64,000 nucleotides of DNA from an uncultured Chloroflexia bacterium (lineage in GTDB: Bacteria > Chloroflexota > Limnocylindria > Limnocylindrales > CSP1-4): positions 194,677 through 258,676 of the forward strand of contig CAVXSS010000001.1 of NCBI GenBank assembly GCA_963764515.1. The letters are read 5' to 3'. Under the pieces are notes generated by a model that ran no database searches, was not told where the DNA came from, and was given only the letters and a program-made list of their open reading frames with translations. Shown one piece after another: positions 6,691 to 59,465 of this stretch (position 1 is its first letter; the number at the start of each line of letters is the position of its first letter). The position numbers and the translations under genes were made by a program.

Positions 6691-6740
6691 GCGCCGACGC
6701 GCCGCCCACGCCCGCGCCAGGGCTGTTGGGTGAGCGGCAC

Positions 6741-7592: not shown

Positions 7593-7755
7593 GCCTGTCT
7601 ACCCCGACGGCGACGCGAGCCCGCGGAGCGGCAGCGGCACCATGACCGCCGCGCAACTGTCGTCGCCTATCGGGCACGCCTGTCCGCCCAACGTAACCGT
7701 CCGACCACCGCCAGGGTGGCCGCCGTCAAGCCGATCAGCAGGCGCCGGTGATGCA

Positions 7756-30897: not shown

Positions 30898-33800
30898 TCA
30901 CCGGGTGCCCCGCAGGACCAGGCCGCGGTATCCGGGCACGAAGCCTGCGACCTGCAGCGTCGACCGGAAGCTCGATTCGCCGACCGGCAGGCCATCGACC
31001 TTCTTGATGACCAGTTCCCGAAGGCGCCCGTCGGCGAGCAGTCCTTCGAGCGCCCGGGCCGCGAGAGCGCCGAGCTCGGGATCGTCGGCCGCCGGTAGGG
31101 TCTGGAGGGTCGAACCGCCGCGTTCCACGTAGAGGACCGCAACCCCATCGACGGTGACGACATACGCCCCGGCAGCACGTTGCAGCGGCCGGCGGTCCGC
31201 GACGCCACGGCGTGGCCAGGCCAGGGCCGCCCCGTACGGTTGGGCCGGGTCCGCGGCGGCGAGCAGCTGGACGGCTGGTGCCCCGCCGCCACCCGCTGCC
31301 TCGCGGGTGGCCCGCAGCCGATCGAGCGCCCCGGACAGCGCGAACTGTGCCGCACCGAGCCCATCGACGAAGTAGCCGCGCCGGATCCGGCCGGCGTCCT
31401 CTAGAGCACGCAGGATCGGATAGACGGCGCTGAACCCGCCGTCGAGTCCTTCGGACGCGACCGCCTCGCGGGTCAGCACCCCATGGCGCTCGAGCATGGC
31501 CAGGGCCTGGGCATGCAGACGCTCGGTGGCGCTGATCGTCGCGGGTGGCTCGACCAGGGACCAGCGGCCCGCCGCCTCGGGCGGGCCTAGGGCCGTCAGC
31601 CGTCCGGGCCGCGGCCGGCGTGTCCCGCCACTCCCGGTCCGCTTCCAGCGGAGCGCCCGAAGCGGCGCGAACGTGTCGTTGGTGACCTCGCCAGCCCAGA
31701 CCAGGTCCCACAGCGCGTCGAGGACCTCCCGGTCCGGCCCACCGCCCGATGCCGCGTGCAGCTCGCGATAGAACGACGCCCCGCGGCGCGTCAGGTGCTC
31801 GCGCAGGGCCTCATGACGCGCTGCGGACGGTCGTTCGACTCCCTCCACCGGGCCGAAGGGGCGCAGCGCGTCGCGCCCCGGCCGGAGGAGCGCGACCCGG
31901 CCGTCGTCGCGTCCGAGGCTCCCCCGCCCCACCCAGGCCACCTCGCCGAGCGAGCCGAGCTCGTCGAGCAGTCGCGGCTGGTACCCGGGGATCCGTGCCG
32001 GCAGCACGTCGCGTTCGAGGACCGACGCTGGGATCGGCAGGCCGGCCAGCTGGTCGACGACCTCGGCCAGCCGCTCGAGGGCGGCCGTGCCACGGAACGG
32101 GGTCGGGGCACTCCCCGCCGGCGCGATGCCGTGCCAGTCGGGCAGGAAGCGGCCCAGCGCGGCCGGATCGACCGGTTCGACCTCGCGACGCAGGCGCGCC
32201 AGCGACCGACGTCGAAGCAGCCGAAGGACGTCGGGGTCGCACCATTCCCGTTCCGCGCCACCGGGCCGGAATTCGCCGCGGAGCACCGTGCCCGCGGCCA
32301 GCAACCGCTCCAGGGCATCCTCGACGACCCCGACCGGCAGCCCCCACCGACGGGCCGGCTCGGGCGTCAGGAACGGCCCGTGCGAGCGGGCCCAGCGCGC
32401 CAGCAGCCCGTCGAGTGCGCCACCGACGGGCGCGAGGAACGCCTCCGGCACGCCGACGGGCGCGGATGCGCCCACGCCGTCCCGGTAGCGCGCCACGTCT
32501 TCGATGGCGATCCAGCGCTCCTCCCCGGCGATCCGGGTTCGCACGGCCCGTCGGCCCGAGGTGAGTTCCTCGAGCCAGGGATCGGCGACGCCGGCACCGC
32601 CCTCCGTCCGGGCGGCGAGCTCGTCGGGACTCAGGTCGCCCAGACGTCGCAGGAGGTCGTGGACGGCGTCGGGGCTCGTGGCGCGTCGGTCGTCGGTGAG
32701 CGCCTGGAGGGACAGCTCGAGGTCGGCGAGGGCATCTGGATCGAGCAGCTCGCGGAGCTCCTCCTGGCCGAGCAGCTCGCGGAGGAGGTCCCGATCGAGT
32801 GTGAGCGCTCCGGCCCGTCGTTCCGCCAGCGGGGTGTCGCCGTCATACATGTAGGCGGCGACGTAGTCGAACAGGAGGCTGCTCGCGAACGGACTCGCCC
32901 GGAGCGTCTCGACGCTGTGGACCGCGATCTCCCGCCGCGCGACGCCGCCGAGGACCTCGCGCAGGGCCGGCAGGTCGAAGACGTCGCTCAGGCACTCCCG
33001 ATAGGTCTCGACGAGGATCGGAAAACTGCCGTACCGGGACGCGACCGCAAGCAGGTCCGCTGCACGCTGGCGCTGCTGCCAGAGCGGTGTCCGCGTCCCC
33101 GGGCGGCGGCGGGGCAGCAGCAGGGCTCGCGCCGCGTTCTCGCGGAACCGGCTGGCGAACAGCGACGAGGACGCCACCTGCCCGACGACCAGGTCTTCCA
33201 GCTCGTCGGACTCCGGGAAGAGCAACGCTTCGATGCCATCGAGCGGCGCATCGCCCTCGGGCAGGCGGATCGCGATCCCATCGTCCGACCAGATCGTCTG
33301 GACGTCGAGGCCCAGCCGCTCGGCCAGCCGGCTCTCGATGGCCATCGACCACGGGGCGTGGACTCTGCCGCCGAATGGCGTCAGCAGGGTCAGCCGCCAG
33401 TCGCCCAGCTCGTCGCGGAATCGTTCGAGGACGATCCGCTTGTCGGTGGGCAGGGCGCCGGTCGCCTCGCGCTCGTCCTCGAGGTAGGCGAGGAGGTTCT
33501 CGGCGGCGCGCTCATCGAGGTCGTGCTCCTCGCGCAGCCGGCCGGCGGCCGCCCGTCGACCGCGATCGCCGTTCGCGAGGTCGGCTTCGAGCTCGCCGAC
33601 GAACGCGCCCATCGCGCGCCCGAGCTCGATCGGGCGACCGACGGCGTCGCCCTTCCAGAACGGCAGCTTGCCGGGGACGCCCGGTGCCGGGGTGACCGTG
33701 ACCCGGTCGTGGGTGATCTCGTCGACGCGCCAGCTGCTGGCGCCCAGGACGACGACGTCGCCGTGCATCCCCGCCCGCAGCTCGTAGACCATCTCCTCGT

Positions 33801-35454
33801 CGAGCTCGCCGACGCGCCGGCCGGGCGTGCCGGCTTCGCCGACCATGAACACGCCGTACAGGCCGCGATCGGGGATCGTGCCGCCGCTCGTGACGGCCAC
33901 GACGCGCGCATCGCGGCGTCCCTCGACGACGTCGGTCACGCGGTCCCAGACGACCCGCGGCTTGAGCTCCGCGAACTCGTCCGAGGGATAGGCGCCCGCC
34001 AGCATCCCGAGCACGCCCTCGAGCAGGTCCCGCGTGAGCGTCTCGTAGGGTGACGCTCGGGTGACCGTGTCCAGCAGGTCCGAGACCGTCCAGCGGTCCA
34101 TCACGGTCATGGCCACGAGTTGCTGGGCGAGGACATCGAGCGGATTGCGCGGGATCGTCGTCGCCTCGATGGCGCCGTCGTGCATCCGCTTGGTGACGAC
34201 CGCGACCTCCAGGAGGTCGCCTCGGTACTTCGGGAAGATGACGCCCTTGCTCGGGGCGCCCACCTGGTGGCCGGCCCGGCCGATCCGCTGCAGGCCGCGC
34301 GCGACGCTGGTCGGCGATTCGACCTGGATCACGAGGTCGACCGCGCCCATGTCGATGCCGAGCTCGAGGCTGGACGTGGCGACGAGGGCTGGGAGGCGAC
34401 CGGCCTTGAGGTCTTCCTCGATGGTCAGGCGCTGCTCACGCGCGATGCTCCCGTGGTGCGCCTTGACGAGGTCCTCGCCGGCCAGCTCGTTGAGCCGCTG
34501 GGCGAGCCGCTCGGAGAGCCGGCGGCTGTTGGTGAAGACGATCGTGCTCTTGTGCTCGCGGATGAGCTCGAGGATCCGCGGGTGGATGGCCGGCCAGATG
34601 CTGGTCCGCAGGTCCGGGCTGGTGGCCGGACCGCCTGGCTGCTCCTCGAGCGGCAGGATCTCGCCGATCGCCGCCATGTCATCGACGGGCACGACGACCT
34701 GGAGATCGAGGGGCTTGCGGGCGCCAGCATCGACGATCTCGACCTCGCGGCCCGGCCCGACGCCGCCAAGGAACCGGGCGATCGCATCGAGTGGCCGTTG
34801 CGTGGCGGACAGGCCGATGCGCTGGAGGGGCGCGGCGTCGGGCGAGCGGAGTCGCTCGAGACGTTCCAGGCTCAGCGCGAGGTGGGCGCCACGTTTCGTG
34901 CCCGCGATCGCGTGGACCTCGTCGACGATCACGTGCTCGACGCCGCGGAGGACCTCGCGTGCCTGGCTCGTGAGCATCAGGTAGAGCGATTCGGGGGTCG
35001 TGATGAGGATGTCGGGCGGGCGCCGAGCGATCTCGCGACGGTCCTCGCTGGGCGTGTCGCCCGTGCGGCTGGCGACCGTGATCGTGGGCATCGGCTGGCC
35101 GAGGCGCTGCGCCGCGTGCCCGATGCCGGTGAGCGGGGCTCGCAGGTTGCGCTCGACGTCGTAGGTCAACGCCTTCAGCGGCGAGACGTACAGGACGCGA
35201 ACCGTGCCGGGCTGGGCCCGCGTCCGTTCGGGCGTCGGGTGGGTCGCGAGCCGGTCGAGGGCCCACAGGAACGCCGCGAGCGTCTTGCCCGAACCGGTCG
35301 GCGCGTGGATCAGCGTGTTGCGACCCGCCGCGATGGCCGCCCAACCGCGTGCCTGCGCATCAGTGGGAGCCTCGAAGCTCGCCTCGAACCACTCGCGAAC
35401 GGGTCGCGAGAACGGGGCTAGTGGATCGGCTCGGACGGGGACGGTCGCGGTCAC
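30898..35454 (-). CDS. lhr: Lhr large ATP-dependent helicase
   Basis: 1518 aa. SF2 motifs LIHAPTGSGKT, DEVH, a HELICc domain, and the long Lhr C-terminal extension. It lies immediately upstream of nei, as in mycobacterial lhr-nei operons. Confidence 0.9.
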   Translation of the reverse strand: MTATVPVRADPLAPFSRPVREWFEASFEAPTDAQARGWAAIAAGRNTLIHAPTGSGKTLAAFLWALDRLATHPTPERTRAQPGTVRVLYVSPLKALTYDVERNLRAPLTGIGHAAQRLGQPMPTITVASRTGDTPSEDRREIARRPPDILITTPESLYLMLTSQAREVLRGVEHVIVDEVHAIAGTKRGAHLALSLERLERLRSPDAAPLQRIGLSATQRPLDAIARFLGGVGPGREVEIVDAGARKPLDLQVVVPVDDMAAIGEILPLEEQPGGPATSPDLRTSIWPAIHPRILELIREHKSTIVFTNSRRLSERLAQRLNELAGEDLVKAHHGSIAREQRLTIEEDLKAGRLPALVATSSLELGIDMGAVDLVIQVESPTSVARGLQRIGRAGHQVGAPSKGVIFPKYRGDLLEVAVVTKRMHDGAIEATTIPRNPLDVLAQQLVAMTVMDRWTVSDLLDTVTRASPYETLTRDLLEGVLGMLAGAYPSDEFAELKPRVVWDRVTDVVEGRRDARVVAVTSGGTIPDRGLYGVFMVGEAGTPGRRVGELDEEMVYELRAGMHGDVVVLGASSWRVDEITHDRVTVTPAPGVPGKLPFWKGDAVGRPIELGRAMGAFVGELEADLANGDRGRRAAAGRLREEHDLDERAAENLLAYLEDEREATGALPTDKRIVLERFRDELGDWRLTLLTPFGGRVHAPWSMAIESRLAERLGLDVQTIWSDDGIAIRLPEGDAPLDGIEALLFPESDELEDLVVGQVASSSLFASRFRENAARALLLPRRRPGTRTPLWQQRQRAADLLAVASRYGSFPILVETYRECLSDVFDLPALREVLGGVARREIAVHSVETLRASPFASSLLFDYVAAYMYDGDTPLAERRAGALTLDRDLLRELLGQEELRELLDPDALADLELSLQALTDDRRATSPDAVHDLLRRLGDLSPDELAARTEGGAGVADPWLEELTSGRRAVRTRIAGEERWIAIEDVARYRDGVGASAPVGVPEAFLAPVGGALDGLLARWARSHGPFLTPEPARRWGLPVGVVEDALERLLAAGTVLRGEFRPGGAEREWCDPDVLRLLRRRSLARLRREVEPVDPAALGRFLPDWHGIAPAGSAPTPFRGTAALERLAEVVDQLAGLPIPASVLERDVLPARIPGYQPRLLDELGSLGEVAWVGRGSLGRDDGRVALLRPGRDALRPFGPVEGVERPSAARHEALREHLTRRGASFYRELHAASGGGPDREVLDALWDLVWAGEVTNDTFAPLRALRWKRTGSGGTRRPRPGRLTALGPPEAAGRWSLVEPPATISATERLHAQALAMLERHGVLTREAVASEGLDGGFSAVYPILRALEDAGRIRRGYFVDGLGAAQFALSGALDRLRATREAAGGGGAPAVQLLAAADPAQPYGAALAWPRRGVADRRPLQRAAGAYVVTVDGVAVLYVERGGSTLQTLPAADDPELGALAARALEGLLADGRLRELVIKKVDGLPVGESSFRSTLQVAGFVPGYRGLVLRGTR

Positions 35455-35755: not shown

Positions 35756-36520
35756 ATGGAACGTCGGAACCTAGCATTGGGGCTTGGCGCGATCGCCACG
35801 CTCCTGCTCTTCTACGCGGCCAATCCGTGGGTCACCCCGCCGGATGGCGCGATCACGGTGATCGTGAACGTCGGGTTCTGGGTCGCGGCGATCGCGCTGG
35901 CGGTCGTGTTGTTCGAGGATCGCCGGGCGCTCGCGGCCGAGTCGGTCGAGATCGACGGGCCGCCCTTCGCGCGGTTCCTGTTCAGCAACTCGCGGGCCGG
36001 CCTGTTCTGGCTGCCGATCCGGCTGTTCGTCGGCTTCGCCTGGGTCGAGGCCGGCTACCACAAGCTGACCGGCGGCGGCTGGGTCACCGACGGGGGCTCG
36101 GCCCTGGCCGGCTACTGGGCGGGTGCGGTCAAGGTCCCCGATCCGGCGGCCGGTCGACCGCCGATCACCTACGAGTGGTATCGCGACTTCATCAACTTCC
36201 TGCTGACCGGCCACCACGAGACCTGGTTCGCCTGGCTCATCACGTTCGGCGAGCTGGCGGTCGGGCTCGGCCTGCTGCTCGGCGCGCTGACCGGCCTGGC
36301 GGCCTTCTTCGGGGCGCTGATGAACATGTCGTTCCTGCTGGCGGGCTCGGGCTCGTCCAACCCGGTCATGTTCTCCCTGGCCATCGGGCTCATCCTGGCC
36401 TGGAAGGTCGCCGGCTACTACGGCCTCGACCGCTACCTGCTGCCGATGCTCGGGACCCCATGGCGACCCGGCGCGCTGACAGGTCGCGCCACCAACCCAC
36501 AAGGGGCCCCGGCCGGCTGA
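35756..36520 (+). CDS. DoxX family membrane protein
   Basis: FLFSNSRAGLFWLPIRLFVGFAWVEAGYHKL, typical of DoxX. A GGGAGTGAAGGGA RBS precedes the start. Confidence 0.7.
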   Translation: MERRNLALGLGAIATLLLFYAANPWVTPPDGAITVIVNVGFWVAAIALAVVLFEDRRALAAESVEIDGPPFARFLFSNSRAGLFWLPIRLFVGFAWVEAGYHKLTGGGWVTDGGSALAGYWAGAVKVPDPAAGRPPITYEWYRDFINFLLTGHHETWFAWLITFGELAVGLGLLLGALTGLAAFFGALMNMSFLLAGSGSSNPVMFSLAIGLILAWKVAGYYGLDRYLLPMLGTPWRPGALTGRATNPQGAPAG

Positions 36521-36630: not shown

Positions 36631-38304
36631 TCAGCGAGTCCCACGAAGTGCCAGGGGGTCGGCCGCACGGAGATGGCCGTCGGCCGGGGAGACCGTGAAC
36701 CCGGCGCGCTCGAGCACCCGCCTCGCGATGGCGGCGCGGGTCGTCCGGTCGAGGGGTTCCAGCGGGTCGCGCTCGGCCACGGTGATCTCCGCGACGTCGG
36801 CCGGGCTGCCGGCCAGGAGTGCACCGGCCAGACCGGAGTGCCGCCGGTCCGGCGCAACGCCGAGCGCCAGGAGGTCGCGGCGCCCGCCTGCGGCCGTCGG
36901 GGCCGCGACGGCCAGGCCGACCACCAGGCTGCCGACGACCGCGGCCGTGACGTGCGCTCCATCCTGGATGGCCGCGAGCAGCAGCGCGTGCCCCACGTCG
37001 GCATCCGCCGGCGAGACGACGCGGGGAGCGAGTCTGAGCCGCGCCCACGTCCCCGCATCGACGGCCGGGACGATCGACGGTGCGCCGACGCCCGGGCCCG
37101 GCGCCGGCATGGTCGTCGCCGGCGCCACGTCCGGATCCCACCATCCACGGCCGCGCGCCTCGCGGAGGAGCCGGGGCACGACCATCATCCTGACCAGCGC
37201 GGTCGTGATCCGCGAGCGCGCTTCGCCCGCCTCCTGGGCGCCATCGACCTCGACCCCGGCGTTCGGGACATCGGTGAAGGCCCCGGGTAGCGGCGCCTGC
37301 CCATAGCGCGCCCCCTCGCCGTTCCAGCGCTCGCGCCAATCCGCCGGCGTCGCTTCCGGCACCTCGCGGTGGGCGCCCGCGAGCCAGACCAGGCTCCACA
37401 TGCGCGGCACGACCCGGTAGGCGTCGTATCCGCCGCCGCCAGTCGCGAGCCACCGGCCGGACGCGTGGCGATGCGCGATCGCGTCGACCAACCTGGCCGC
37501 CTTGCCCATCGCGGTCGTCGTGACCCGCAGGTGCGCCAGCGGATCCCACGCGTGCGAATCGGCGCCGTGCTGGCTGACGATGACGTCCGGTCCGAACGTG
37601 GCGGCCAGCTCGGGGAGGAGGATTCCCACGGCCTCAAGCCAGGCACCCTCGCCGGTCATCGGTTCCATCGGGACGTTGACCGCGGTGCCGGCCGCGGTCC
37701 CCTCCCCGAGCTCATCGACGAAGCCACTCCCCGGAAACAGGTGACGGCCGGTCTCGTGGATCGAGAACGTCAGCACCCCTGGGTCATCCCAGAACATCGC
37801 CTGGACGCCGTCGCCGTGGTGGACGTCGAGGTCCACATACAGGACGCGCAACCCGTCGCGTCGGGCCCGGGCGATGGCCAGCGCCGGGTCGTCGTAGATG
37901 CAGAAACCCGAAGCGTGGTCCGGCATCGCGTGATGGAGGCCACCACCTGGATGGAACGCATGGGCGTCGTCGCCATGCAGGATCGCCTCCATCGCGCGGA
38001 TGGATCCGCCGGCCACCGCCGCTGCGGCGTCGTGCATGCCCCCGAACGGCGGGTTGTCGCCGAGCTCGCCGATGCCCGCCAGCGGACCTCCGTACGGCGC
38101 CTCGGAGAAGCGGCGCACGACCTCGATGTAGCGAGCGTCGTGACACCATCGCAGCTCATCGTCGGGCGCGGGCTCGGGCGCGAGGCCCGGCTCCGCCCCG
38201 ACCGCCCGCAGGAGGTCGATCGAGGGCGCGAACCGTCGCGGCGTGAGCGGATGGTCCGGCCCGAAGTCGTAGGTCGTCGAACGCGGGCCGAAGACGAGCA
38301 GCAT
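36631..38304 (-). CDS. Histone deacetylase-family protein (AcuC/acetoin-utilization-like) with a ~150-aa C-terminal GNAT-like extension
   Basis: HDAC core: HHGDGVQ, DLDVHHGDG, HPGGGLHHAMPDHASGFC. The C-terminal extension (PDRRHSGLAGALLA ... RRVLERAGFTVSP) resembles a GNAT acetyl-CoA-binding region. The ATG at 38304 (MLLVFGPRSTTYDFGPDHP) was chosen over the track start at 38325. Confidence 0.75.
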   Translation of the reverse strand: MLLVFGPRSTTYDFGPDHPLTPRRFAPSIDLLRAVGAEPGLAPEPAPDDELRWCHDARYIEVVRRFSEAPYGGPLAGIGELGDNPPFGGMHDAAAAVAGGSIRAMEAILHGDDAHAFHPGGGLHHAMPDHASGFCIYDDPALAIARARRDGLRVLYVDLDVHHGDGVQAMFWDDPGVLTFSIHETGRHLFPGSGFVDELGEGTAAGTAVNVPMEPMTGEGAWLEAVGILLPELAATFGPDVIVSQHGADSHAWDPLAHLRVTTTAMGKAARLVDAIAHRHASGRWLATGGGGYDAYRVVPRMWSLVWLAGAHREVPEATPADWRERWNGEGARYGQAPLPGAFTDVPNAGVEVDGAQEAGEARSRITTALVRMMVVPRLLREARGRGWWDPDVAPATTMPAPGPGVGAPSIVPAVDAGTWARLRLAPRVVSPADADVGHALLLAAIQDGAHVTAAVVGSLVVGLAVAAPTAAGGRRDLLALGVAPDRRHSGLAGALLAGSPADVAEITVAERDPLEPLDRTTRAAIARRVLERAGFTVSPADGHLRAADPLALRGTR

Positions 38305-38323
38305 GCGTGGCACGATACCGGTC

Positions 38324-38740
38324 ATGGACCGGGTCTACACCACGCCGCTCCTCGACAAGCTCGGGATCCGGCCTGGCATGCGGGTCGCCCTCGTCGACAT
38401 CGACGACGAATCGGTCCGTTCGCTGCTGGCCGAGCGGACGGCCGACCTCACGGAGGGCTGGCCCAAGCCCGACACCGACATCGTCCTGCTGGGCGCCGAA
38501 TCGATGGCGCAACTGGCGTCACTCCCCGAGCTGGCCGCCCTGATCCGGCCGAACGGCGCGATCTGGGTCGTCTCCCGAAAGGGCAAGGCCGCGACCCTCC
38601 GTGACGTCGAGGTCATCGCGGCGGCCAAGGCGTCGGGTCTCGTTGACAACAAGGTCGCCTCGTTCTCGCCCACGCACACGTCCCTGCGCCTCGTGATCCC
38701 GGTGGCGCTTCGCGGAGTACCATCCACGCATGGGTCCTGA
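38324..38740 (+). CDS. DUF3052 family protein
   Basis: MDRVYTTPLLDKLGIRPGMRVALVD matches the DUF3052 N-terminus. Confidence 0.6.
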   Translation: MDRVYTTPLLDKLGIRPGMRVALVDIDDESVRSLLAERTADLTEGWPKPDTDIVLLGAESMAQLASLPELAALIRPNGAIWVVSRKGKAATLRDVEVIAAAKASGLVDNKVASFSPTHTSLRLVIPVALRGVPSTHGS

Positions 38741-38978: not shown

Positions 38979-39581
38979 GTGATCCCCGACGAGATCGCCG
39001 CCCTCACCGTCCGTCCCGGACCGGGCTCGCATCGAACGATGCTCACGATCGATGGCCGACCGATCGAGACCCTCGCGGATCTTCCGCCCATGAGGAACAA
39101 GCTCCTCTTCGTCGGCCTGAACCCGTCGCCGGTCAGCGTCACGGCGGGCCACTACCACCAGGGCCGGCTCGGGCGCACGTTCTGGCGCCGGCTGATGCTG
39201 GCCCGCATCCTGCCGCCCGGCACGCCGATCGAGGCCGCCGACGACGTCCTGGCTGCGGCCGGTCACGGCATCACGGACCTGCTCAAGCGCCCGACAGCTC
39301 GCGACGAGGCCACCGATGCGGACCTGACGACCGGCGTCGGACCGCTCTGGCGGAAGATCGCCATCTGGCGGCCGGCCGCGGTGGTGTACATCTACAAGCG
39401 CGCGGCGGCGATCTCGGCCGGTCGCCCTCTCACGGAGCACTGGGGACAGCTGCCCGGCGTGGCCATGGCCGGCAGGCCGTGCTTCCTCATGCCCGGCCCG
39501 TATGCGCCGACAAAGGAGGTCGACGAAGGGCTCAACTTCCTGCGCAACCTCTCGGCGGCACTGCCGATGGACGAGAGCTAG
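38979..39581 (+). CDS. mug: G/U mismatch-specific DNA glycosylase (UDG family 2, Mug/TDG-like)
   Basis: LLFVGLNPSPVS ... GHGITDLLKRPT blocks parallel the Mug GINPGL ... motifs. 200 aa. Confidence 0.6.
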   Translation: MIPDEIAALTVRPGPGSHRTMLTIDGRPIETLADLPPMRNKLLFVGLNPSPVSVTAGHYHQGRLGRTFWRRLMLARILPPGTPIEAADDVLAAAGHGITDLLKRPTARDEATDADLTTGVGPLWRKIAIWRPAAVVYIYKRAAAISAGRPLTEHWGQLPGVAMAGRPCFLMPGPYAPTKEVDEGLNFLRNLSAALPMDES

Positions 39582-40555
39582 CTGCCGGCGCGCTCCGGGA
39601 AAGCCTCGCCGGACGGAAGGCGGCGCGCGAAGGCGGCCAGCAACACGAGGGAGCCGACCGCCGCGAGGATCGACGTCGCGAGCCCGATCCACGTGAGGAT
39701 CGAGACGTCCGCGCTTGGTGTGACCATGAGATAGGCCAAGTTCGATACGGACGAGCTGATCGTTGACGCCGCGACGATCGACCATGCCCCAGTCGTCGCG
39801 AGCCGCCAGGCGCCGGCGGGTCGCTCGCCGGCAGCCGCGCCGGCAGAGACGACGATCGCGAGATAGCCGACCGATGCGAGCGTCAGCCAGCTCGCGGCGA
39901 GCAGGACCGCGTTGTACCAGAGGTTGACGTCCGGCTGCTCGGAGCCGTAGCGGGCCAGCGCGAGCAGCCCGACCGCGACCGTCCAGGCCACCAGCAACAC
40001 GAGCACGACGACGGTCGCCCGACCACGGCGCGGCGAACCTCCGCGGTCGGAGCGGAGGCGTGCGACTCGGAGGCCCCGGGCCACCCAGATGAACCCCGTG
40101 GCCAGCAGGGCCGCCACGAGCAGGCTGTACGCCGTCATGGCGGCGCCGGACGGATCGTCGAAGAGCCCACGGATCCACATCCCGGCCGTCTGCATCGTTT
40201 GGCCGGCCGCCAGGAGCCCGACGCCAATGGCGACCGAGCGCAGGGTCGACCAGGCCGACGGTCGGCAGGCGAAGACGGCTGCCCCGAACAGCACGTTGGC
40301 GACAGGCGGGACGAGGCCGGAGATCGTTGCAACGATGGTCCGAACGAAGATGCCGCTGTCGAGCGCAGGATCGGGCGGGTAGACGAGGCGACGGTCGGCC
40401 GCGAGGGCGACGCCGTTGGCGACAGCCAGGATGACAAACGCCCACGAGACCGCAGGCAGCCTCCCTGGGAGGCTGGTCAGCCGGTCCGGCAGGTGCGGGC
40501 CGCGAGCTTCCGCCCACGGCGTGCCGTCGATCGTTCGGCCGACGGGCTCGTTCAT
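39578..40555 (-). CDS. Hypothetical polytopic membrane protein
   Basis: Only the 325-aa C-terminal part of the 713-aa track ORF is protein-like, with ~8 TM segments. ATG at 40555. Confidence 0.5.
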   Translation of the reverse strand: MNEPVGRTIDGTPWAEARGPHLPDRLTSLPGRLPAVSWAFVILAVANGVALAADRRLVYPPDPALDSGIFVRTIVATISGLVPPVANVLFGAAVFACRPSAWSTLRSVAIGVGLLAAGQTMQTAGMWIRGLFDDPSGAAMTAYSLLVAALLATGFIWVARGLRVARLRSDRGGSPRRGRATVVVLVLLVAWTVAVGLLALARYGSEQPDVNLWYNAVLLAASWLTLASVGYLAIVVSAGAAAGERPAGAWRLATTGAWSIVAASTISSSVSNLAYLMVTPSADVSILTWIGLATSILAAVGSLVLLAAFARRLPSGEAFPERAGS

Positions 40556-40678
40556 CGCCGCATCCTGGGCCACCGTCGACGGGACGTCAACGACACCCGC
40601 GAGGTCGATCGCCCGTATCACTGTGATATCATTTCGATCGCGCGGATTCAGATCGCGCAGAAGGAGTATCGGCCACCC

Positions 40679-41581
40679 ATGAACAAGGAGCGCCAAGCCC
40701 GCACCCTCCCCGGCATCCCCACCTTCCTCGTCCTCCTGGCCGCGCTGATCGCGCTGGTCGTCGCGGCGATCTGGTACGTCGCGGCGGTCCTGGTGCCGGC
40801 GGGCAATTCCGTCGACTTCCTCACCATCGCGCCATTGCTGCTGATCGTCCTGGCGATCACCGCGGTCTGCATCGGGTTCGGTGGCCTCACCGCGGTGAAC
40901 CCGAACGAGGCCCGCGCGCTGGTGCTGTTCGGCCACTACGGCGGCACCATCCACACCCAGGGCCTCCAGTGGGTGAACCCGTTCACGATGCGCCGCAGGA
41001 TCTCCGTCCGCGTGCGCAACTTCGAGACCTCCAAGCTCAAGGTGAACGACCACGACGGCAACCCGATCGAGATCGCCGCGGTCGTCGTCTGGAAGGTGAC
41101 CGACACCGCCGAGGCGCTGTTCGAGGTCGACGACTACGAGAACTTCGTCCACGTGCAGGCCGAGTCGGCACTGCGGAACCTCGCCACGACGCACCCGTAC
41201 GACGCCCACCAGGAGGGCGATGTCGCCCTGCGCTCGAACCCGGCCGAGATCGCGGACCAGCTCCGGACCGAGATCCAGGATCGGCTCCAGAAGGCCGGCG
41301 TCGAGGTCATCGAGGCGCGCATCAGCCACCTCGCCTATGCACCTGAGATCGCCAACGCGATGCTCCGCAGGCAGCAGGCCAACGCGGTCATCGCCGCACG
41401 CACGCGGATCGTCGAGGGCGCGGTCGGGATGGTCGAGATGGCACTGGATCAGCTGTCCGCCAAGAACGTCGTGAACCTCGACGAGGAGCGCAAGGCACAG
41501 ATGGTCAGCAACCTGCTCGTCGTCCTGTGCTCGGAGCACGAGACGCAGCCGGTCGTCAACACCGGGACGCTGTACGCGTAG
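40679..41581 (+). CDS. SPFH/Band-7 (stomatin/prohibitin-like) domain protein
   Basis: N-terminal TM anchor followed by an SPFH domain ([22 protein letters not shown]). An AAGGAG RBS lies upstream of the ATG. Confidence 0.8.
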
Positions 41582-41627
41582 CGCCGGACCGACCGCAGGC
41601 CGGCCCGTCGAGCCAGGTCCCACGACC

Positions 41628-41813
41628 ATGACCGAGCGGAAGCCGTTCCTCCTCCGCCTCGACCCCGAGACGTTCGCGGCCCTCCAGCGGTGGGCCGCGG
41701 ACGACCTCCGCTCGGTCAACGGGCAGGTCGAGTTCCTCCTCCGGCGGGCACTCCGCGATGCCGGCCGCGTGCGCGAGCCGAAGGACCGCCCGACGAGGGA
41801 CCCCGCTCCGTAG
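41628..41813 (+). CDS. Arc/MetJ-type ribbon-helix-helix DNA-binding protein
   Basis: [37 protein letters not shown] follows the RHH pattern of Arc-family proteins. Confidence 0.5.
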
Positions 41814-51470: not shown

Positions 51471-51788
51471 GTGACCTTTGGGCGGGTGGCGAGTGACTTC
51501 GTGAAGATCGACATCGGGCTCATCCGGGGCATCAACGCCGACGTGTCACGCCAGGCACTCGTGGTCGGGCTGCTCCATTTTGCCCGCGCATCGAACTGGC
51601 ATGTCATCGCCGAGGGGATCGAGACGGCCGCCGAGCTGGCGACGTTGAGGGCTCTTGACGTGCGGTTCGGCCAGGGATTCCTGCTTGGGAAGCCGGGAGA
51701 CGCCGCCACCTGGAGCGCGACCGCCACCGGGGTGTCTTCGGTCAGTTCGAGCCCGCGACGACCGCCGCGCCCTACCATGGCTGCGTGA
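51471..51788 (+). pseudogene. EAL-domain C-terminal remnant (~80 codons of a c-di-GMP phosphodiesterase domain)
   Basis: DFVKIDIGLIRG...VIAEGIETAAELATLRALDVRFGQGFLLGKP are the last conserved EAL blocks. No upstream part of the domain appears in any frame. The stop overlaps the DUF72 GTG (GTGA). Confidence 0.5.
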
Positions 51789-52822
51789 GCGACGCCGTCC
51801 ACGACCCCGGCCCCGATCGCAGCGCGGCGCGCGTCGCGGATCTGCCGCCCGATGTCGCCGCGGAGCCCATCCACCTCGGGCCCGGCCCCGCCGATACCGG
51901 CATCGTCCGGATCGGGACCGCGTCCTGGACCGACCCGACGATGACCGCGGCCGGCGTCTTCTATCCCGAGGGCGCCGACTCCGCCGAGGAGCGCCTCGGC
52001 TATTACGCCAGTCGGTTCCCGCTCGTCGAGGTCGACGCGACCTACTACGCGCTCCCCGCCCGGCGGACGGCCGAGCTATGGGTCGAACGCACCCCGCCCG
52101 ACTTCACCTTCGACGTCAAGGCACACGCCCTGATGACCGGCCAGCCGACCGAGACGAAACGCCTGCCGAAGGACCTCCGGGCCGCTCTCCCCGACGACAT
52201 CGCCGCGAAGCCGCGCATCTACGCCAAGGACCTGCCCGATGCGCTGCGCGACGACGTCTGGGCCTGGTTCGCCGACGGCCTCGAGCCGCTCAAGGAGGCG
52301 GGCCAGCTCGGCTCGATCCTGCTCCAGTACCCGCGCTGGTTCTTCACCTCATCGGAGAACCGCGCCCAGATCGAGGAAGCCATCGGTCGCCTGCGGGACG
52401 CGGGGATGACCGGCGCGGTCGAGTTCCGGAGCGCGTCGTGGTTCAACGAGAAGAACATCGAGCGGACGCTCAAGTTCCTCGGCGATCGGGGGATCCCGAT
52501 GGTCATCGTCGATGGCCCGCAGGGCTTCAAGTCGAGCGTGCCCGCGGTCGTCGCCGCCACCTCACCGGAGCTCGCGATCGTGCGTTTCCACGGCCGCCGG
52601 ACGGAGACCTGGGAGGCGAAGGGCATCCAGACCGTCGAGCGGTTCCGCTACCTGTACGACCGCGACGAGCTCAAGGAATGGGCGCCGCGCGTCCAGGAGA
52701 CCGCGGGCCAGGCGAAGGACACGCACGTCCTCTTCAACAACTGCTACGCGAACTACGGCGCGACCAACGCGCTCGAACTGGCGCAGCTCCTGCTCGACCT
52801 TGAGGCCGCCGACTCGTCGTAG
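51785..52822 (+). CDS. DUF72 family protein
   Basis: IRIGTASWTDP ... YALPA ... FRSASWFNEKN, typical DUF72 blocks. 345 aa. Confidence 0.75.
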   Translation: MSDAVHDPGPDRSAARVADLPPDVAAEPIHLGPGPADTGIVRIGTASWTDPTMTAAGVFYPEGADSAEERLGYYASRFPLVEVDATYYALPARRTAELWVERTPPDFTFDVKAHALMTGQPTETKRLPKDLRAALPDDIAAKPRIYAKDLPDALRDDVWAWFADGLEPLKEAGQLGSILLQYPRWFFTSSENRAQIEEAIGRLRDAGMTGAVEFRSASWFNEKNIERTLKFLGDRGIPMVIVDGPQGFKSSVPAVVAATSPELAIVRFHGRRTETWEAKGIQTVERFRYLYDRDELKEWAPRVQETAGQAKDTHVLFNNCYANYGATNALELAQLLLDLEAADSS

Positions 52823-52828
52823 CGACGA

Positions 52829-53362
52829 CTACGTCGAGGCGTCGCGGAGCGCCTCCGCCCGGAGCTTGGCCAGGTACGCCGAGGCACCCTTGTAGTTCGG
52901 CCACGTGACGTCGTGCTCGTACGGCGATGACGCCTCGGAGAGTCGGTGACTGCCAGGTGCAATGGCTCGACCACCAGCAGCAGCCCGCAGTCGCCGGTCG
53001 AAGGTCATGAGGGATCCCTCAACCGCGTCAGCAAGGGCCAGGTACATCGCGTCGTACGAGGTCAAGGAGTGCCGCTCGGCAAAGTCGATCGCCGACAGCA
53101 GCAACGCTCGATCCAACTCGACCGTTTCGAGCTCCATCTCGTCGAGGTCGCGCAGCGCCCGAACGACCTCGGAGGTGGGCCAACGATGACGCCGGATCAG
53201 CGAATTCACGACCTCGAGCCAGAAGTGCGACGGGGTGACGATCCGGCGACGCTCGCGAGTCCATCTGTCAACTGCAATCGCGGCGGCAGATCCTTCGGAC
53301 TCATCGCGAACGATCGAGACCGCCACGGAGGCGTCGATGACGATCGCGGGCAACTCATTCAT
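52829..53362 (-). CDS. vapC: PIN-domain toxin of a type II TA pair (VapC-like) with a C-terminal extension
   Basis: AIVIDASVAVSIV (first PIN acidic residue) ... LTSYDAMYLALA. The ATG overlaps the antitoxin stop (ATGAATGA). Confidence 0.75.
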   Translation of the reverse strand: MNELPAIVIDASVAVSIVRDESEGSAAAIAVDRWTRERRRIVTPSHFWLEVVNSLIRRHRWPTSEVVRALRDLDEMELETVELDRALLLSAIDFAERHSLTSYDAMYLALADAVEGSLMTFDRRLRAAAGGRAIAPGSHRLSEASSPYEHDVTWPNYKGASAYLAKLRAEALRDAST

Positions 53363-53696
53363 GGTCGAGCGGGGGGAGTCCACGAGCCGCACGATCGATT
53401 TGTTCGTCTCGCCGTTCGTATTCGCGATGTCGCCATTCGACCTCGGTCAGGCCATCGTCCGGGGGCGGGTACTTCTCGGCCATCTCCTTGCCGAGTGCGA
53501 CGAGCCGATCGAGGGCGGCCAACCGGCGTCGAAGGCGCTCATCCTGATCGGGATCCAACCGCCGGCCATCCTCCACAGACACCAGGTACGCCAGGGGGCG
53601 ATGGTCGCGCTCGATCAGGATCCGCTCGCCCGCCGACGCGGCGTCGAGGATCTCGCCGAGGCGCTTGCGCATGTCCATCGCCGTCACGGTTCTCAT
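53355..53696 (-). CDS. vapB: Phd/YefM-type antitoxin
   Basis: MRKRLGEILDAASAGERILIERDHRPLAYLV matches the Phd/YefM N-terminal fold. It lies immediately upstream of the PIN gene. Confidence 0.75.
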   Translation of the reverse strand: MRTVTAMDMRKRLGEILDAASAGERILIERDHRPLAYLVSVEDGRRLDPDQDERLRRRLAALDRLVALGKEMAEKYPPPDDGLTEVEWRHREYERRDEQIDRAARGLPPLDHE

Positions 53697-53963
53697 GATT
53701 GATCATGATAATCGTATATCATGGTCGGTCGAGGCGCCACGGCGCCCGGCCAGCCGGGCGGGCGTGCTTCCCAGACAGCACGGGGCGTCCCAAGGGCCTG
53801 ATCGACCATGCTGGGTGCCCATTCGGTGTCTGGTGGGCACGCGTGCGCGCCCAACCCGCTCGATGCAACGGTTCAGTGCCATGGTGCTGTCTGCCAGGCA
53901 CGCGCACGATCCCGGCCCAAATCCATGACGTCGCGCAGATATCGCTGTCGTAGGCTATCGCCT

Positions 53964-54578
53964 ATGAGTGCGAACGCCGTGGCTGGCTTCCTGCCGAGCA
54001 CCTGGGGGCTGCATTTCGCGAACAACTATCCGTCGGGGCCCACCGTCAAGCTCGGGCCCCTCGATCCGCGCTGGGTCGGCATCGGCGACGCGAGTTCGGG
54101 CCTGTGCGGGGGGATGAGCTGGTACGTGCGCGACGCGTTCGCGGCGAAGCGCCCGATCCCGCCCGACACGACCGCCCCGGCCAACGGCACGCCGCTGTTC
54201 AAGGCGATCGTCCGGAACCAGGTCCAGTCGCTCTACTGGCTGAGCGTCCCGCTGCGGTTCTACTGGCTATCGGCATTCGTCGGCGGCAAGCCCGGCCGCC
54301 GGGCGGTCGACCATGAGTGGGCCAAGATCACCGGCGCCATCGACGCCCAGAAGCTGCCGATCATCGGGCTCATCCGCAAGTCGTCGTGGAACCCGTTCAA
54401 GCTGACCTCGAACCATCAGGTCCTCGCGTACGCCTACGACGACGATGGCACGACGCGCCACCTGAAGCTCTACGACCCGAACCACCCCGACGACGACACG
54501 GTCGTGATCACCATCGACGCATCCGGCCTCAAGCAATCGACCGGCGAGGACCTGCTCGACCTCTTCAACGCGGGGTAG
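53964..54578 (+). CDS. Hypothetical protein, putative papain-fold cysteine peptidase
   Basis: 204 aa. Candidate triad Cys (GLCGGMSWY), His (SNHQVLAY, ~112 residues later) and Asp (YDPNHPDDD, ~16 residues later). This spacing recalls YopT/AvrPphB (C58)-type enzymes. Confidence 0.35.
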   Translation: MSANAVAGFLPSTWGLHFANNYPSGPTVKLGPLDPRWVGIGDASSGLCGGMSWYVRDAFAAKRPIPPDTTAPANGTPLFKAIVRNQVQSLYWLSVPLRFYWLSAFVGGKPGRRAVDHEWAKITGAIDAQKLPIIGLIRKSSWNPFKLTSNHQVLAYAYDDDGTTRHLKLYDPNHPDDDTVVITIDASGLKQSTGEDLLDLFNAG

Positions 54579-54949
54579 GAGGAGACAAGGGACTGGGGTC
54601 CAACGAGCGCGCCTGCTTGGAGCAACCGTCGGAATTGGGCGGTGATAGCGGAGACTTGATCGGGGCTCGGCCAAGCCGCCCGTCCGGTTGGCAGCAGCAG
54701 AGGTCGTCCCGCGAACACGGGTGGTTGATCGACACCGATGCGGTGACGGCCGCAGCCTCCCTGAAGTGCTTGCTCGATACGTTCACGACGAAGTCCGACA
54801 ATCAATGATGCGGATGGGTGCGACGCCCGCCGACAAGCGATCGACGCAGATCGAGTTCACGAATTGACTGCTCCGCTTCATGAGCAGCGCCAAGACAAGC
54901 GGGCCAGCGTTTGATGACGCCATCGACATCTCGGGTACCTTTCGAGCCT

Positions 54950-57700
54950 GGGTGACCTGACAACCGGAGATCGTCCTCCCATCGAAGGGACACGCTAGTC
55001 GGAGACCCTGCGGTCAAGGGCACAACGACTTCCAGATTGGAACGGTCGGTCGTGAGATCGAGAGTGCCGATCGGATCGATCTCTTGTGTGCGTTCGTACG
55101 GTTCGCAGGGCTTCGGCTGATCCGACCGCAGGTACAAGATTTCCTCCTCCGTGCTGACCAAATCCGGCCAACGCAGCGACCGGCCTAAGGAGCGCCGAGC
55201 CCTCGACGACCCTCAGGCCATGGAACCAAGGTCAGGACCCGTAAGACTCGCAAACACGACTGTACGCGGAGGCCTGGCTCTTTCATCGCGATTCCGGCTA
55301 CCACACCGCATATGTCGGGTCATCGAACCTCACCCATTCGGCCCTGCTAGACGGCCTCGAATGGAACATTCGCAACGGCCATCGACGACGCGTCGCGTCA
55401 TCGCATCCGCGACTTCGAGCAGTACTGGAATGAACCGGAATTCGAGTCATACGACCCTCGTGTCGACGGAGAGCGCCTGGAGCAGGCCCTCAACCAGCAG
55501 AAGGGCATGACGCTCGCACCCGAGGCGTTCAACATCTCAATCGAGTTTGGGCCCAAGCCGTTTCAGCAAGAAATGCTCGAGGCGCTCGCGGCCGAGCGAC
55601 AGCGTGGCCACATGCGAAACCTCGTTGTCGCGCCAACTGGAACCGGGAAGACCTGGGTATCCGCCTTCGACTACAAGCGCCTGCGGAGCGAGGGATTGGA
55701 CCGCCTGCTCTTCGTGGCTCACAGAGACGAGATCCTGCAGCAGAGCCAACAGGTCTTCAGGTATGTCCTCGACGACATGTCATTCGGCGAACGTCACGTG
55801 GGAGTCGAACGACCGGCAATCGGCGATCATGTCTTCGCTTCGATTCAGTCGTCATCGACCTCATACGCCCGAGGTCGGTACGACCTCGTAGTCATCGATG
55901 AGTTCATCACGCCGAGTTGACCAGACGTGCCCGAATCTCCAGGATCTGTCGACCACAGGTCTTGCTAACTAGGCGACCCCGGATACGCGCCGGATGACAG
56001 CACATTCGTTGACGGTTCGACAACCGGATCGCTTGCGACATGCGACTGTGGCAGGCGCTGGATCAGGGCCTGCTCTCGCCGTTCCACTATTTCGGCGTTC
56101 ACGACGGTACCGATCTACGCGGCGTTGCTTTCGAGCGTGGGCGGTACGCCCCCGGCGAGCTCGAGGGCATCTCACCGGAGACCAGTCCGCGCTCGTCGAA
56201 GTCTCGATTCCGCCCAGGAATGGGTGCTGGACGGAACGAAGATTCGGGAACTCGGGTTGTGCGCCGGGGTCGCGCACGCCCAATTCATGGCCGACCAATT
56301 CAACCAAGCGGGCTTGCCTGCAGTCGCGCTGCATGGTGGTTCGCCTCGTGACGTCCGCGTCAATGCCGTTAGGCAGCTTCGAAGAGGCGAACTGCGAGCC
56401 ATCTTCACGGTCGACATCTTCAACGAAGGTATCGACATCCCGGAGGTCGATACGATCCTCCTACTCCGACCCACGGAGAGCGCGACCATATTTCTTCAGC
56501 AGCTAGGCCGGGGTCTGCGCTGGGCCGAAGGCAAGACCGTGCTGACGGTCCTCGACTTCATCGGTCAGTCCAACGCCAAGTATCGGTTTGATCTCCGGTA
56601 CCGCGCGATCATGGGCGGGACCCGCCAGCAGCTGCGACGAATGATCGAAAGTGGCCTCCCACAGGGGCCGCCCGGTTCCGCGGTGCGATTAGACGTGATC
56701 GCCCAGGAAATCGTCCTCGAGAACGTCCGGAGCAGCCTGCGACTCAGTCGGCGGGAGCTTGTCGACGATCTGCGTGGGATGCCTGCTAACACGACGCTGG
56801 GCGAGTTCCTGGCAGCAAGCGAACACGAACTCAGTGACGTCTACTCGAGCCCAGGCCAGACCTTCATGTCGCTGCGACGGGCTGCCGGGCATGTCCGCGG
56901 ACCCGCCGATCCAATGGAACAGGACGGGTCGAAGGCGTTGGCGCGGATCCTCCATGTGGACGACGAGGAGCGATACGCGCATTGGACGCGATTCCTCAAC
57001 GGTGGTCCGATTGATACGGACATTGCCAGCCGCGAAGGGCGCCTCAACCTGATGCTCTTCGCCGCGTTGGGACATTGGAAACGGCCCGTGACTGATCTCG
57101 CGACCACCTTGGACGCGTTCCGCGAGAATCCGGCCCTCCGGGATGAGCTCGGCCAGCTGTAGAGGTCTGCGGGACCTAACCGCTCGGAGACTCGCCCGGT
57201 CAAGCGCCTCGGGGCCGGTTCCGTTGCACAGCCACGCTACGTATGGCCTTTACGAGTTGATCGCTGGTTACGGCATGATCAGCAAGGAGCGGCTCCGAGC
57301 GAATCGTGAGGGATTGGCCTGGGTCCCGGAACAGCAGACTGACCTGTTCTTCGTGACCCTGAACAAGTCGGATGACGACTACTCGCCAACGACCAGGTAT
57401 CAGGACTATCCGATCTCCCCAACTTGATCCAGTCGAGGCGGACACGGCGTCGTCGCCCACTGGTCGGCGCTACATCAATCATGTCGCACTTGGGTCGAAG
57501 ATCGTCCTCTGCGTTCGCGAGAACCGGAAAGATGGGCGTGGTGAGTCGGCGCCCTACGTCTGTCTCGGACCCGCCAGATTGGTTCGACACGAGTCGGAGA
57601 AGCCGATTAGATCGTTTGGGAACTCGAACGGCCAATGCCAATCGAGATGTTCCAGTCAGCGAAGGTGGCCGCCGGCTGAGCTCGGCAAGTGTACCAGGCC
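54950..57700 (+). pseudogene. Decayed gene for a PLD-like nuclease / SF2 helicase / DUF3427 protein, broken by multiple frameshifts and stops
   Basis: Pieces lie in three frames. PLD/HKD fragment: IDLLCAFVRFAGLR ... AWLFHRDSGYHTAYVGSSNLTHSALLDGLEWNIRN. Helicase motif I: NLVVAPTGTGKTW, then DEF at 55900. Motifs V-VI: TVDIFNEGIDIPEVDTILLLRPTESATIFLQQLGRGLR. DUF3427-like tail: YSPTTRYQDYPISPT / RRYINHVALGSKIVLCVRE...PYVCLGPARLVRHE. Confidence 0.65.
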
Positions 57701-57951
57701 AAGTCGAGGTTCGGGTAGCGAGCGGCGAGTTCGTCGAGGGTGAACGAGGCAACGCCGAGGCGGGCTTCGGTTCCGTCCAGATCGGTGATGACGGCGTCCA
57801 CCAACAGCTCGGCATCCCCAGGTCGAAGTTCTATGTTTTCGAGGACGAGCTTCACGATCTGCGGCAGGGTCTGGGCGACCTCGTCGCGGAGTTCCCGGCC
57901 GTACGCTCGAATGACGATGTTCAGTGCCCAGCGACGACTGGCTGATCCCAT
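57607..57951 (-). CDS. Hypothetical protein (114 aa)
   Basis: Protein-like ORF (LPQIVKLVLENIELRPGDAELLVDAVITDLDGTEARL) at the right edge of the lower-GC island. No family recognised. Confidence 0.3.
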   Translation of the reverse strand: MGSASRRWALNIVIRAYGRELRDEVAQTLPQIVKLVLENIELRPGDAELLVDAVITDLDGTEARLGVASFTLDELAARYPNLDLAWYTCRAQPAATFADWNISIGIGRSSSQTI

Positions 57952-58025
57952 GCCGTGACACTACCGGGATCGCTGGAGATCGTCGATCGGGCAAATCGCA
58001 CCAGAGTGCCCGTCCCCGAGCCTGC

Positions 58026-59270: not shown

Positions 59271-59465
59271 GTGCGCATCCTGCCACGCCGATGAGCCGGT
59301 GGTAAGGGGCGTCTGCTTGACTGCGTTCGTGGCTCGCGCAGCTGTCAGTTGCACGTTCGGGATGAACGCCTCGTGGACCGTTTCCCAGACTGCAGATCCT
59401 GCAGGATTCGGCTTGGGTTCACGCTCGTTCGTTCGGGATGTGCATCTGGGAGAGGCGGGTCCCGG

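Follow-up and report, generated by a model that had tools for sequence, protein, structure and literature searches.

The window analysed here is a 64,000-nucleotide stretch of DNA from an uncultured Chloroflexia bacterium (contig CAVXSS010000001.1 of assembly GCA_963764515.1, positions 194,677 to 258,676), with a G+C content of ~70% throughout. On its minus strand it carries a complete gene (36631..38304, stop codon included) for a 557-residue protein in which an AcuC-type zinc-dependent deacetylase is joined to an AcuA-like domain of the GNAT acetyltransferase fold. As the predicted structure of the GNAT domain resembles AcuA, the fusion brings together counterparts of AcuA and AcuC, two enzymes known to oppose each other in regulation. 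It is proposed, with a probability of about one half, that the gene encodes an eraser and a writer of lysine acetylation on a single chain, the GNAT domain acting on the deacetylase's own protein targets.

Architecture and conservation of the fusion protein

An earlier reading of the window, made from its letters without database searches (the sequence-only reading), had described a one-polypeptide fusion of an HDAC-family protein and a GNAT-like domain at 36631-38304, and an uninterrupted ORF (open reading frame) of 557 residues was confirmed at the same coordinates. In the ORF listing of the window the frame is longer (36631..38325, minus strand, 564 residues) and opens at an alternative upstream ATG at 38325. 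As the first 7 residues of this longer ORF are not present in about 88% of 120 aligned database homologs, the alignment makes Met8 almost certainly the real start codon, giving the gene of 36631..38304. Database protein P0001 has the same sequence as the 557-residue product (100% identity). No internal stop or frameshift was found in the window gene, which is co-linear with its homologs over the full length, and a split of the fusion into two genes by a frameshift, a possibility raised by the sequence-only reading, was therefore rejected. Residue numbers are those of the 557-residue product, and all coordinates, which refer to the minus strand unless stated otherwise, were verified by translation.

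The deacetylase core (residues 18-307, 37384..38253) was identified by a match to the Pfam family Hist_deacetyl (PF00850) with 255 bits and an E-value of 1e-75, against a curated cutoff of 27.9. A sequence search of the PDB with the fusion protein returned HDAC-family chains exclusively, including HDAC6, HDLP, Clr6, HDAC8 and HDAH; the two-domain HDAC6 scored 171 bits (78 and 91 for its separate domains), HDLP 150 and HDAC8 137. The PDB set searched contained no AcuC chain, and the comparator used for AcuC was P0397, a protein named by both NCBI and UniRef as 'acetoin utilization protein AcuC [Bacillus subtilis]'. Residues 2-345 of the fusion protein aligned with P0397 by BLASTP at 40% identity (270 bits, E=6e-90), and this alignment passes beyond the HDAC core into the C-terminal region of AcuC, with the shared patterns 'GGGGYD.(Y/W)RVVPR.W...WL' and then 'P..W..(R/K)W'. 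By sequence score, the deacetylase half is nearer to AcuC than to any other HDAC-family sequence matched in the PDB. Predicted structure did not separate the sub-classes of HDAC, since HDAH, HDLP, HDAC8 and Kdac1 scored alike in a comparison of the full-length model with the PDB. The HDAC half of that model is also its less confident part, with several segments at a predicted local distance difference test score (pLDDT) below 50. A search of NCBIfam gave no match for the fusion protein; the genuine AcuA and AcuC of B. subtilis likewise gave none, and the blank is therefore uninformative.

Conservation was assessed by scanning one genome per species (GTDB), and all conservation counts refer to the best 80 of at least 576 confirmed relatives, with the window added where the total is 81. 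Nine residues (H124, H125, D158, D160, H162, H163, D165, D249 and Y293) are each conserved in 81/81 sequences. From established knowledge of the HDAC8 and HDLP active sites we take these to be the catalytic and zinc-binding residues. They comprise the catalytic histidine pair H124-H125 (37930..37935), the segment DLDVHHGD at residues 158-165 with the zinc ligands D160 and H162 (37810..37833), the third zinc ligand D249 within a GADSHAWDP motif (37558..37560) and the catalytic tyrosine Y293 of the GGGGY motif (37426..37428). The HHGDG/DxHHGDG motif named in the sequence-only reading was thus recovered as DLDVHHGDG at residues 158-166. On this sequence evidence the N-terminal half is an AcuC-type zinc deacetylase with a complete active site, predicted to be competent.

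The core is followed by a helical extension (residues 308-391, 37132..37383), recognised from the AcuC alignment, its conservation and predicted helices. Its first part is of AcuC type, as far as the alignment with P0397 reaches (residue 345), while the remainder is specific to the present family and closes with an almost invariant RGWWDP motif. Residues 351-390 were modelled as helices with block-mean pLDDT values of 89-95 in the full-length AlphaFold model. The sequence-only reading had assigned the first ~400 residues as a whole to a classical zinc-dependent HDAC/AcuC fold; the assignment to this class stood, and its extent was refined to the core and the extension, of which the part beyond the AcuC alignment is family-specific.

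A variable linker rich in Pro, Ala and Gly (residues 392-409, 18 residues, 37078..37131), the least conserved part of the protein and of differing length among relatives, leads to the AcuA-like GNAT domain (residues 410-557, 148 residues, 36634..37077), which was delimited with AlphaFold, Foldseek and hhalign. In the AlphaFold models this domain has the topology b1-a1-a2-b2-b3-b4-a3-b5-a4-b6-b7, which is the canonical GNAT order. Its pLDDT was 93.5 when residues 408-557 were modelled alone (AlphaFold2) and 93-97 within the full-length model. A Foldseek search of the PDB with the 408-557 model yielded 64 matches at E<=0.001, of which 50 were listed, every one an acetyltransferase of the GNAT fold. 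The ~150-residue acetyltransferase-like module seen by the sequence-only reading is accordingly a compact domain in the model and not a disordered tail, and its postulated R/Q-x-x-G-x-A loop is present as RHSGLA at residues 488-493. The C-terminal 148 residues are, on the strength of the models and of the family-level matches given next, a real GNAT fold.

In Pfam searches, where the deacetylase half scored so clearly, the window copy of the GNAT domain scored 13.9-16.4 bits against Acetyltransf_7 and remained below the cutoff of 27. Among its relatives, 58/65 matched Acetyltransf_7 and 57/65 matched Acetyltransf_1 at E<=0.01, and one of them (P0018) exceeded both curated GNAT cutoffs (31.9 bits against 20.7 and 31.6 against 27), the former being the same score as that of genuine AcuA. 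Taken over the family, the GNAT signal is thus well above what chance would give. The sub-threshold score of the window copy is explained by a deletion of ~12 residues in its clade, which shortens helix a3 and the following loop (36784..36825, residues 494-507) relative to most of the family members in A2, an alignment of the C-terminal domain alone that served as the source of a domain-only profile. The helix a3 segment reads 'GLAGALLAGSPADVAEIT' in the clade of the window and, for example, 'GLAGQLLAAHIEGMRPGDVDLVAEVT' in other members. When the A2 profile was run against PDB sequences, 49 matches were found at E<=1, almost all of them GNAT chains, with 2r7h as the best (E=4e-4).

The pyrophosphate loop for acetyl-coenzyme A (acetyl-CoA), known as motif A, has the form Arg/Gln-x-x-Gly-x-Gly/Ala (PMC8556138). 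In the fusion protein it reads R488-H-S-G491-L-A493 (R-x-x-G-x-A; 36826..36843) and aligns with R108-G-C-A-V-G of AcuA; across species the Arg is kept in 77/78, the Gly in 75/78 and an Ala or Gly at the last position in 76/78. Given this motif, the domain very likely binds acetyl-CoA. A family-specific motif, E511-R512-D513 (36766..36774), follows directly after strand b5 and is conserved in 72/76, 75/76 and 76/76 species, respectively; it adjoins the active-site cleft.

Among the PDB structures, AcuA was the closest to the GNAT domain. Chains of 2q04 together with chain C of 9g7f took the first six places in the Foldseek search, with TMq values of 0.75-0.81 and E-values between 5e-8 and 7e-7, the remaining GNATs among the matches listed having TMq values of ~0.45-0.60. 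Chain C of 9g7f is AcuA of B. subtilis (UniProt P39065) and 2q04 is its ortholog from Exiguobacterium (E=1e-85). When A2 was compared by hhalign with 117 aligned AcuA sequences, the E-value was 9.5e-5 for a match that spans 89 columns and takes in the N-terminal b1-a1-a2 part; 'LLALGVAPDRRHSGLAGALL' was paired with 'LGAIEVAPDYRGCAVGKTLL' of AcuA. Besides structure, the likeness extends to the acetyl-CoA loop, a 'VAPD-x-R' segment and the partnership with an AcuC-type deacetylase. The domain differs from AcuA in that the N-terminal ~20 residues of the latter are absent and that two loops, b3-b4 and b5-a4, are reduced; in total it is ~60 residues shorter. We therefore regard it as a GNAT subfamily of its own, AcuA-like but outside the AcuA family. 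The likeness to AcuA, together with the lack of its catalytic base and AcsA-binding tail described below, goes beyond what the sequence-only reading had noticed.

The best 80 relatives share 56-77% identity with the window protein, and nearly all come from Chloroflexota metagenome-assembled genomes (MAGs) labelled Candidatus Limnocylindrales, 'Chloroflexia' or 'Chloroflexota'; the few other taxon labels probably reflect binning or naming. The survey of relatives found a GNAT region of more than 110 residues in 75/80 loci, the remainder being cut by contig ends or frameshifted. The fusion is maintained across the whole of this lineage of soil and freshwater Chloroflexota. Over the 80 species the HDAC core has a median identity to the window of 76%, the extension one of 56%, the GNAT domain one of 48% and the linker one of 29%, indicating that the GNAT domain evolves faster than the core while retaining its key motifs. 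Since motif A and the E-R-D motif are kept in ~95-100% of the 80 species within so diverged a domain, its ligand-binding or catalytic site appears to be under selection and not in decay.

A search of 1.84 billion proteins with the domain-only profile yielded no more than 345 cluster representatives at E<=0.001. The majority of those inspected have their start within the HDAC extension ('...RGWWDP...') or show frameshifted sequence. Three Met-initiated calls that consist of the GNAT domain only (P0129, P0124 and P0125) were considered as stand-alone versions and rejected, as they correspond to the 3' portion of fusion loci; P0124 and P0125 lie on ~1-kb contigs and match at lower identity, and P0129, from another assembly, is 97% identical to locus L037. 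In L037 itself (6001-7716) a stop codon at 7150-7152 leaves a 183-residue GNAT-only call (P0392), which could be taken for gene fission. The in-frame stop and restart are explained by two compensating frameshifts, with LLREARDRGWWDP encoded out of frame, and the break, which is no clean fission, either stems from an indel error of long-read assembly or marks a pseudogene. Among the inspected representatives and the 80 loci, neither a convincing stand-alone version of this GNAT nor a clean two-gene arrangement was found, and the AcuA-like GNAT appears to have evolved exclusively as part of the fusion.

Proposed function and alternatives

In Bacillus, AcuA acetylates the acetyl-CoA synthetase AcsA at K549 and thereby inactivates it, and AcuC reverses the modification (PMC11255334, PMC11910552, PMC8556138). 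In the mechanism proposed here, one polypeptide would do the job of these two separate proteins. The N-terminal 390 residues, as an AcuC-type zinc deacetylase, would clear acetyl groups from protein targets, and the C-terminal 148 residues, as an AcuA-like GNAT, would bind acetyl-CoA and acetylate the same targets, which would be proteins and not small molecules. With writer and eraser fixed at 1:1, and with the two activities presumably under reciprocal control, net acetylation would follow the level of acetyl-CoA, or the acetyl-CoA/CoA ratio.

Several observations weigh against this proposal. A chain with two opposing activities would cycle futilely unless the two were under reciprocal control. 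The resemblance to AcuA is weak at the level of sequence, with an hhalign probability of just 25-59%, and AcuA was not among the PDB sequence matches of the A2 profile. The general base of AcuA, E102, is essential, and its replacement in E102Q abolishes activity (PMC11255334); hhalign aligns this position with G482 of the fusion protein (36859..36861), which is Gly in 74/76 species. The 138-WHW-140 motif of AcuA, in which W140 helps acetyl-CoA binding (PMC11255334), is absent, and the corresponding segment reads E511-R512-D513-P-x-E/D-P, without Trp or His. This correspondence, with E135-Y-Y(-W-H-W) at residues 135-141 of AcuA, lies beyond the end of the hhalign alignment and is one that we infer from our own sequence comparison. 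Also absent is the C-terminal tail of AcuA (residues 203-210), which inserts into the CoA site of AcsA (PMC11910552), the fusion protein stopping at the last GNAT strand. Lastly, no acetyl-CoA synthetase (Acs) signature was found in a motif scan, which covered the window and the 80 loci and not whole genomes; a single PRTRTGK match at the edge of locus L011 looked unrelated. The linkage of acsA and acu genes seen in Bacillus is therefore absent, and the substrate is not readable from the genomic context.

The loss of the general base to an all but invariant Gly and the loss of the WHW motif favour the main rival reading, a GNAT domain that is non-catalytic and serves either as a sensor of acetyl-CoA or CoA that switches the AcuC-type deacetylase in cis or as a dock for its substrate. 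We consider this alternative possible and put it forward tentatively; a regulatory or substrate-recognising role had also been suggested by the sequence-only reading. Strict retention of the CoA-binding loop is what would be expected of a ligand sensor, and the core of AcuA holds AcsA tightly even without acetyl-CoA, so the fold can dock (PMC11910552). Regulation of this general kind has a precedent in AcuB, the ACT domain of which inhibits AcuC in trans by binding near the active centre (PMC13039410), and a parallel in Pat enzymes, where an acyl-CoA-synthetase-like domain binds acetyl-CoA allosterically. The full-length model, with a predicted template modelling score (pTM) of 0.83 despite the variable linker, hints at a fixed arrangement of the two domains. 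However, the general base varies widely between GNATs that are active, and a mycobacterial Pat mutant without its putative base stays active (PMC8556138), so that the loss of E102 is no proof of inactivity. The near-invariant E511 and the invariant D513 after strand b5 could, from their conservation and their position, substitute as the base. In more divergent members of the family such as P0231 the loop reads R-G-R-G-L-G, which is fully canonical, and helix a3 has its full length, both features being typical of active GNATs.

It is also conceivable, and in our view improbable, that both domains act on a small molecule such as a polyamine, an amino sugar or an antibiotic-like amine in a cycle of metabolite acetylation and deacetylation. 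The HDAC fold does include acetylpolyamine amidohydrolases (PMC11532494), many of the weaker structural matches of the GNAT domain acetylate small molecules such as phosphinothricin, diaminobutyrate or spermidine, and the Acs motif scan linked no gene for a protein substrate to the fusion. Against this stand the score of the deacetylase half to AcuC, a protein deacetylase, which at 270 bits compares with 171 for HDAC6 and 150 for HDLP, the finding that the structurally closest GNAT is the protein acetyltransferase AcuA, and a set of neighbouring genes (Lhr, UDG-family, DUF3052-like and DoxX) which points to no small-molecule pathway. That the fusion is an artefact, with two genes joined through a sequencing or assembly frameshift or the loss of a stop codon, or with a tail of non-functional read-through, is very improbable indeed. 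MAG assemblies of high G+C do carry frameshifts, and in this gene they were seen in L037, P0126, P0181 and P0218. Nevertheless, 75 of the 80 independent species-level genomes show the same co-linear architecture, at identities as low as 56%, and keep the motifs of both halves. No clean two-gene version was found beside it, the split in L037 being the product of compensating frameshifts.

Genomic neighbourhood of the fusion gene

Downstream of the fusion gene lie a gene for a DoxX-family membrane protein on the opposite strand (35756..36520, plus strand) and, on the same strand, a gene for an Lhr-type helicase of 1518 residues (30898..35454) with DEAD, Helicase_C and DEAD_assoc domains and four Lhr winged-helix domains. 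Upstream and divergent are a DUF3052-like gene (38303..38740, plus strand) and a gene of the UDG superfamily (38979..39581, plus strand). Where enough sequence was available, Lhr was found downstream on the same strand in 48/62 loci, at times 89-250 bp away, and upstream the UDG-family gene was present in 42/71 loci and the DUF3052-like gene in 34/71. The DNA-repair flavour of Lhr and UDG may reflect a functional link or simply a conserved gene order within one lineage. Unlike the AcuC operon, the fusion locus has no acuA, acuB or acsA neighbourhood.

The start codons of the fusion gene and of the divergent DUF3052-like gene stand back-to-back and share a CATG palindrome (38302-38305), and a second CATG (38323-38326) offers alternative starts for both genes. 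Depending on which of the two is used, the genes overlap by 2-23 nt or are just 19 nt apart. This geometry, which recurs in loci L001-L003, L010, L011 and L013, implies leaderless mRNAs or promoters located inside the coding sequence of the neighbour.

Elsewhere in the window, ~20 kb from the fusion gene, an ORF at 58026-59354 (minus strand, 442 residues) was found to encode an Eis-type acetyltransferase with Acetyltransf_9, Acetyltransf_17 and SCP2_2 domains; its domain content makes it a further candidate, besides the fusion protein, for an acetyltransferase of proteins or aminoglycosides. The region 52000-58000 has a G+C content of 0.62-0.67, compared with ~0.71 in the rest of the window, and may be an acquired island. 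It contains two ORFs without a Pfam match (52946..53698 and 53808..54578) and one with Helicase_C only (56125..57162), and a DUF72 gene is located at 51785..52822. It should also be noted that an SPFH/Band-7 ORF (40199-41581, plus strand, 460 residues as listed) overlaps a 713-residue ORF on the minus strand (39578-41719), the C-terminal half of which resembles a multi-pass membrane protein. Rfam and tRNA scans of the window returned no matches.

Relation to known systems and significance

AcuC of the B. subtilis acuABC operon (UniProt P39067) is a stand-alone, class-I-like zinc-dependent lysine deacetylase of ~387 residues. The fusion protein resembles it in sequence (the 40% identity over residues 2-345) and in all of the catalytic and zinc-binding residues, and differs in having an additional ~45-residue helical extension ending in RGWWDP, the linker and the 148-residue GNAT domain. 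In layout it matches the type III bacterial GNATs, in which ~300-400 N-terminal residues likewise precede the GNAT domain, as in the mycobacterial cAMP-Pat, the actinobacterial ACT-GNAT and the NADP-sensing MxKat of Myxococcus (PMC8556138). In those proteins, however, the N-terminal domain is a small-molecule sensor, whereas in the fusion protein it is a complete opposing enzyme. Five types of bacterial GNAT lysine acetyltransferases have been described, with acyl-CoA-synthetase-like, cAMP-binding, ACT and NADP-binding domains as the partners in types I-III and no deacetylase among them; a class fused to a deacetylase does not figure in the scheme (PMC8556138). No GNAT fusion is mentioned in the main text of a 2024 survey of bacterial classical deacylases (PMC11532494), nor is an HDAC-GNAT fusion mentioned in the papers on AcuA, AcuB and AcuC (PMC11255334, PMC11910552, PMC13039410). 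Full-text literature searches likewise found no description of one. In the databases the relatives are named 'AcuC family' or 'GNAT family', with several sources giving 'acetoin utilization protein AcuC', so that the co-occurrence of the two domains is visible in automated annotation and has not yet been interpreted.

Opposing activities on one chain are known from the adenylyltransferase/adenylyl-removing enzyme GlnE, from the kinase/phosphatase AceK and from the synthetase/hydrolase SpoT, for all of which reciprocal regulation has been demonstrated. They share the logic hypothesised here for the fusion protein, that of a writer and an eraser in fixed stoichiometry switched by a metabolite. 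To our knowledge, none of the three concerns lysine acetylation. What is new is the joining of the AcuC/AcuA pair, as a putative writer-eraser fusion, with a divergent AcuA-like module, each half being of a known kind and the function being predicted from sequence and models. Tentatively, the protein could be the first natural case of a lysine acetyltransferase and a deacetylase combined in a single polypeptide, in which both activities would address the same targets and be switched reciprocally by acetyl-CoA or by the acetyl-CoA/CoA ratio. Whatever the amount of enzyme, the acetylation of the targets would then reflect acetyl-CoA status, and the protein would represent a new type of bacterial GNAT lysine acetyltransferase beyond the five, used by the entire Limnocylindrales lineage in place of separate AcuA, AcuB and AcuC.

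Bacterial lysine acetylation is seen as a contest of separate writers, the GNATs, and erasers, namely sirtuins and AcuC-type HDACs. Regulation of the erasers is just starting to be resolved, as with AcuB and Ap4A/ATP in 2026. The fusion serves as a natural 'Rosetta stone', giving independent support for a functional coupling of AcuC-type deacetylases with AcuA-like GNATs far outside Bacillota, the group for which such coupling was established. For several hundred genomes of uncultured Chloroflexota it also improves the annotation of a protein now called either 'AcuC' or 'GNAT' and not both. At ~60 kDa the protein offers a compact and testable system for the passage from acetyl-CoA level to protein acetylation state. 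Should the GNAT domain be a sensor, the fusion would exemplify how a pseudo-acetyltransferase that binds acetyl-CoA regulates an HDAC in cis, with relevance to HDAC regulation generally. If both domains are active, acetylation would join the short list of modifications placed under bifunctional enzymes of opposing activities.

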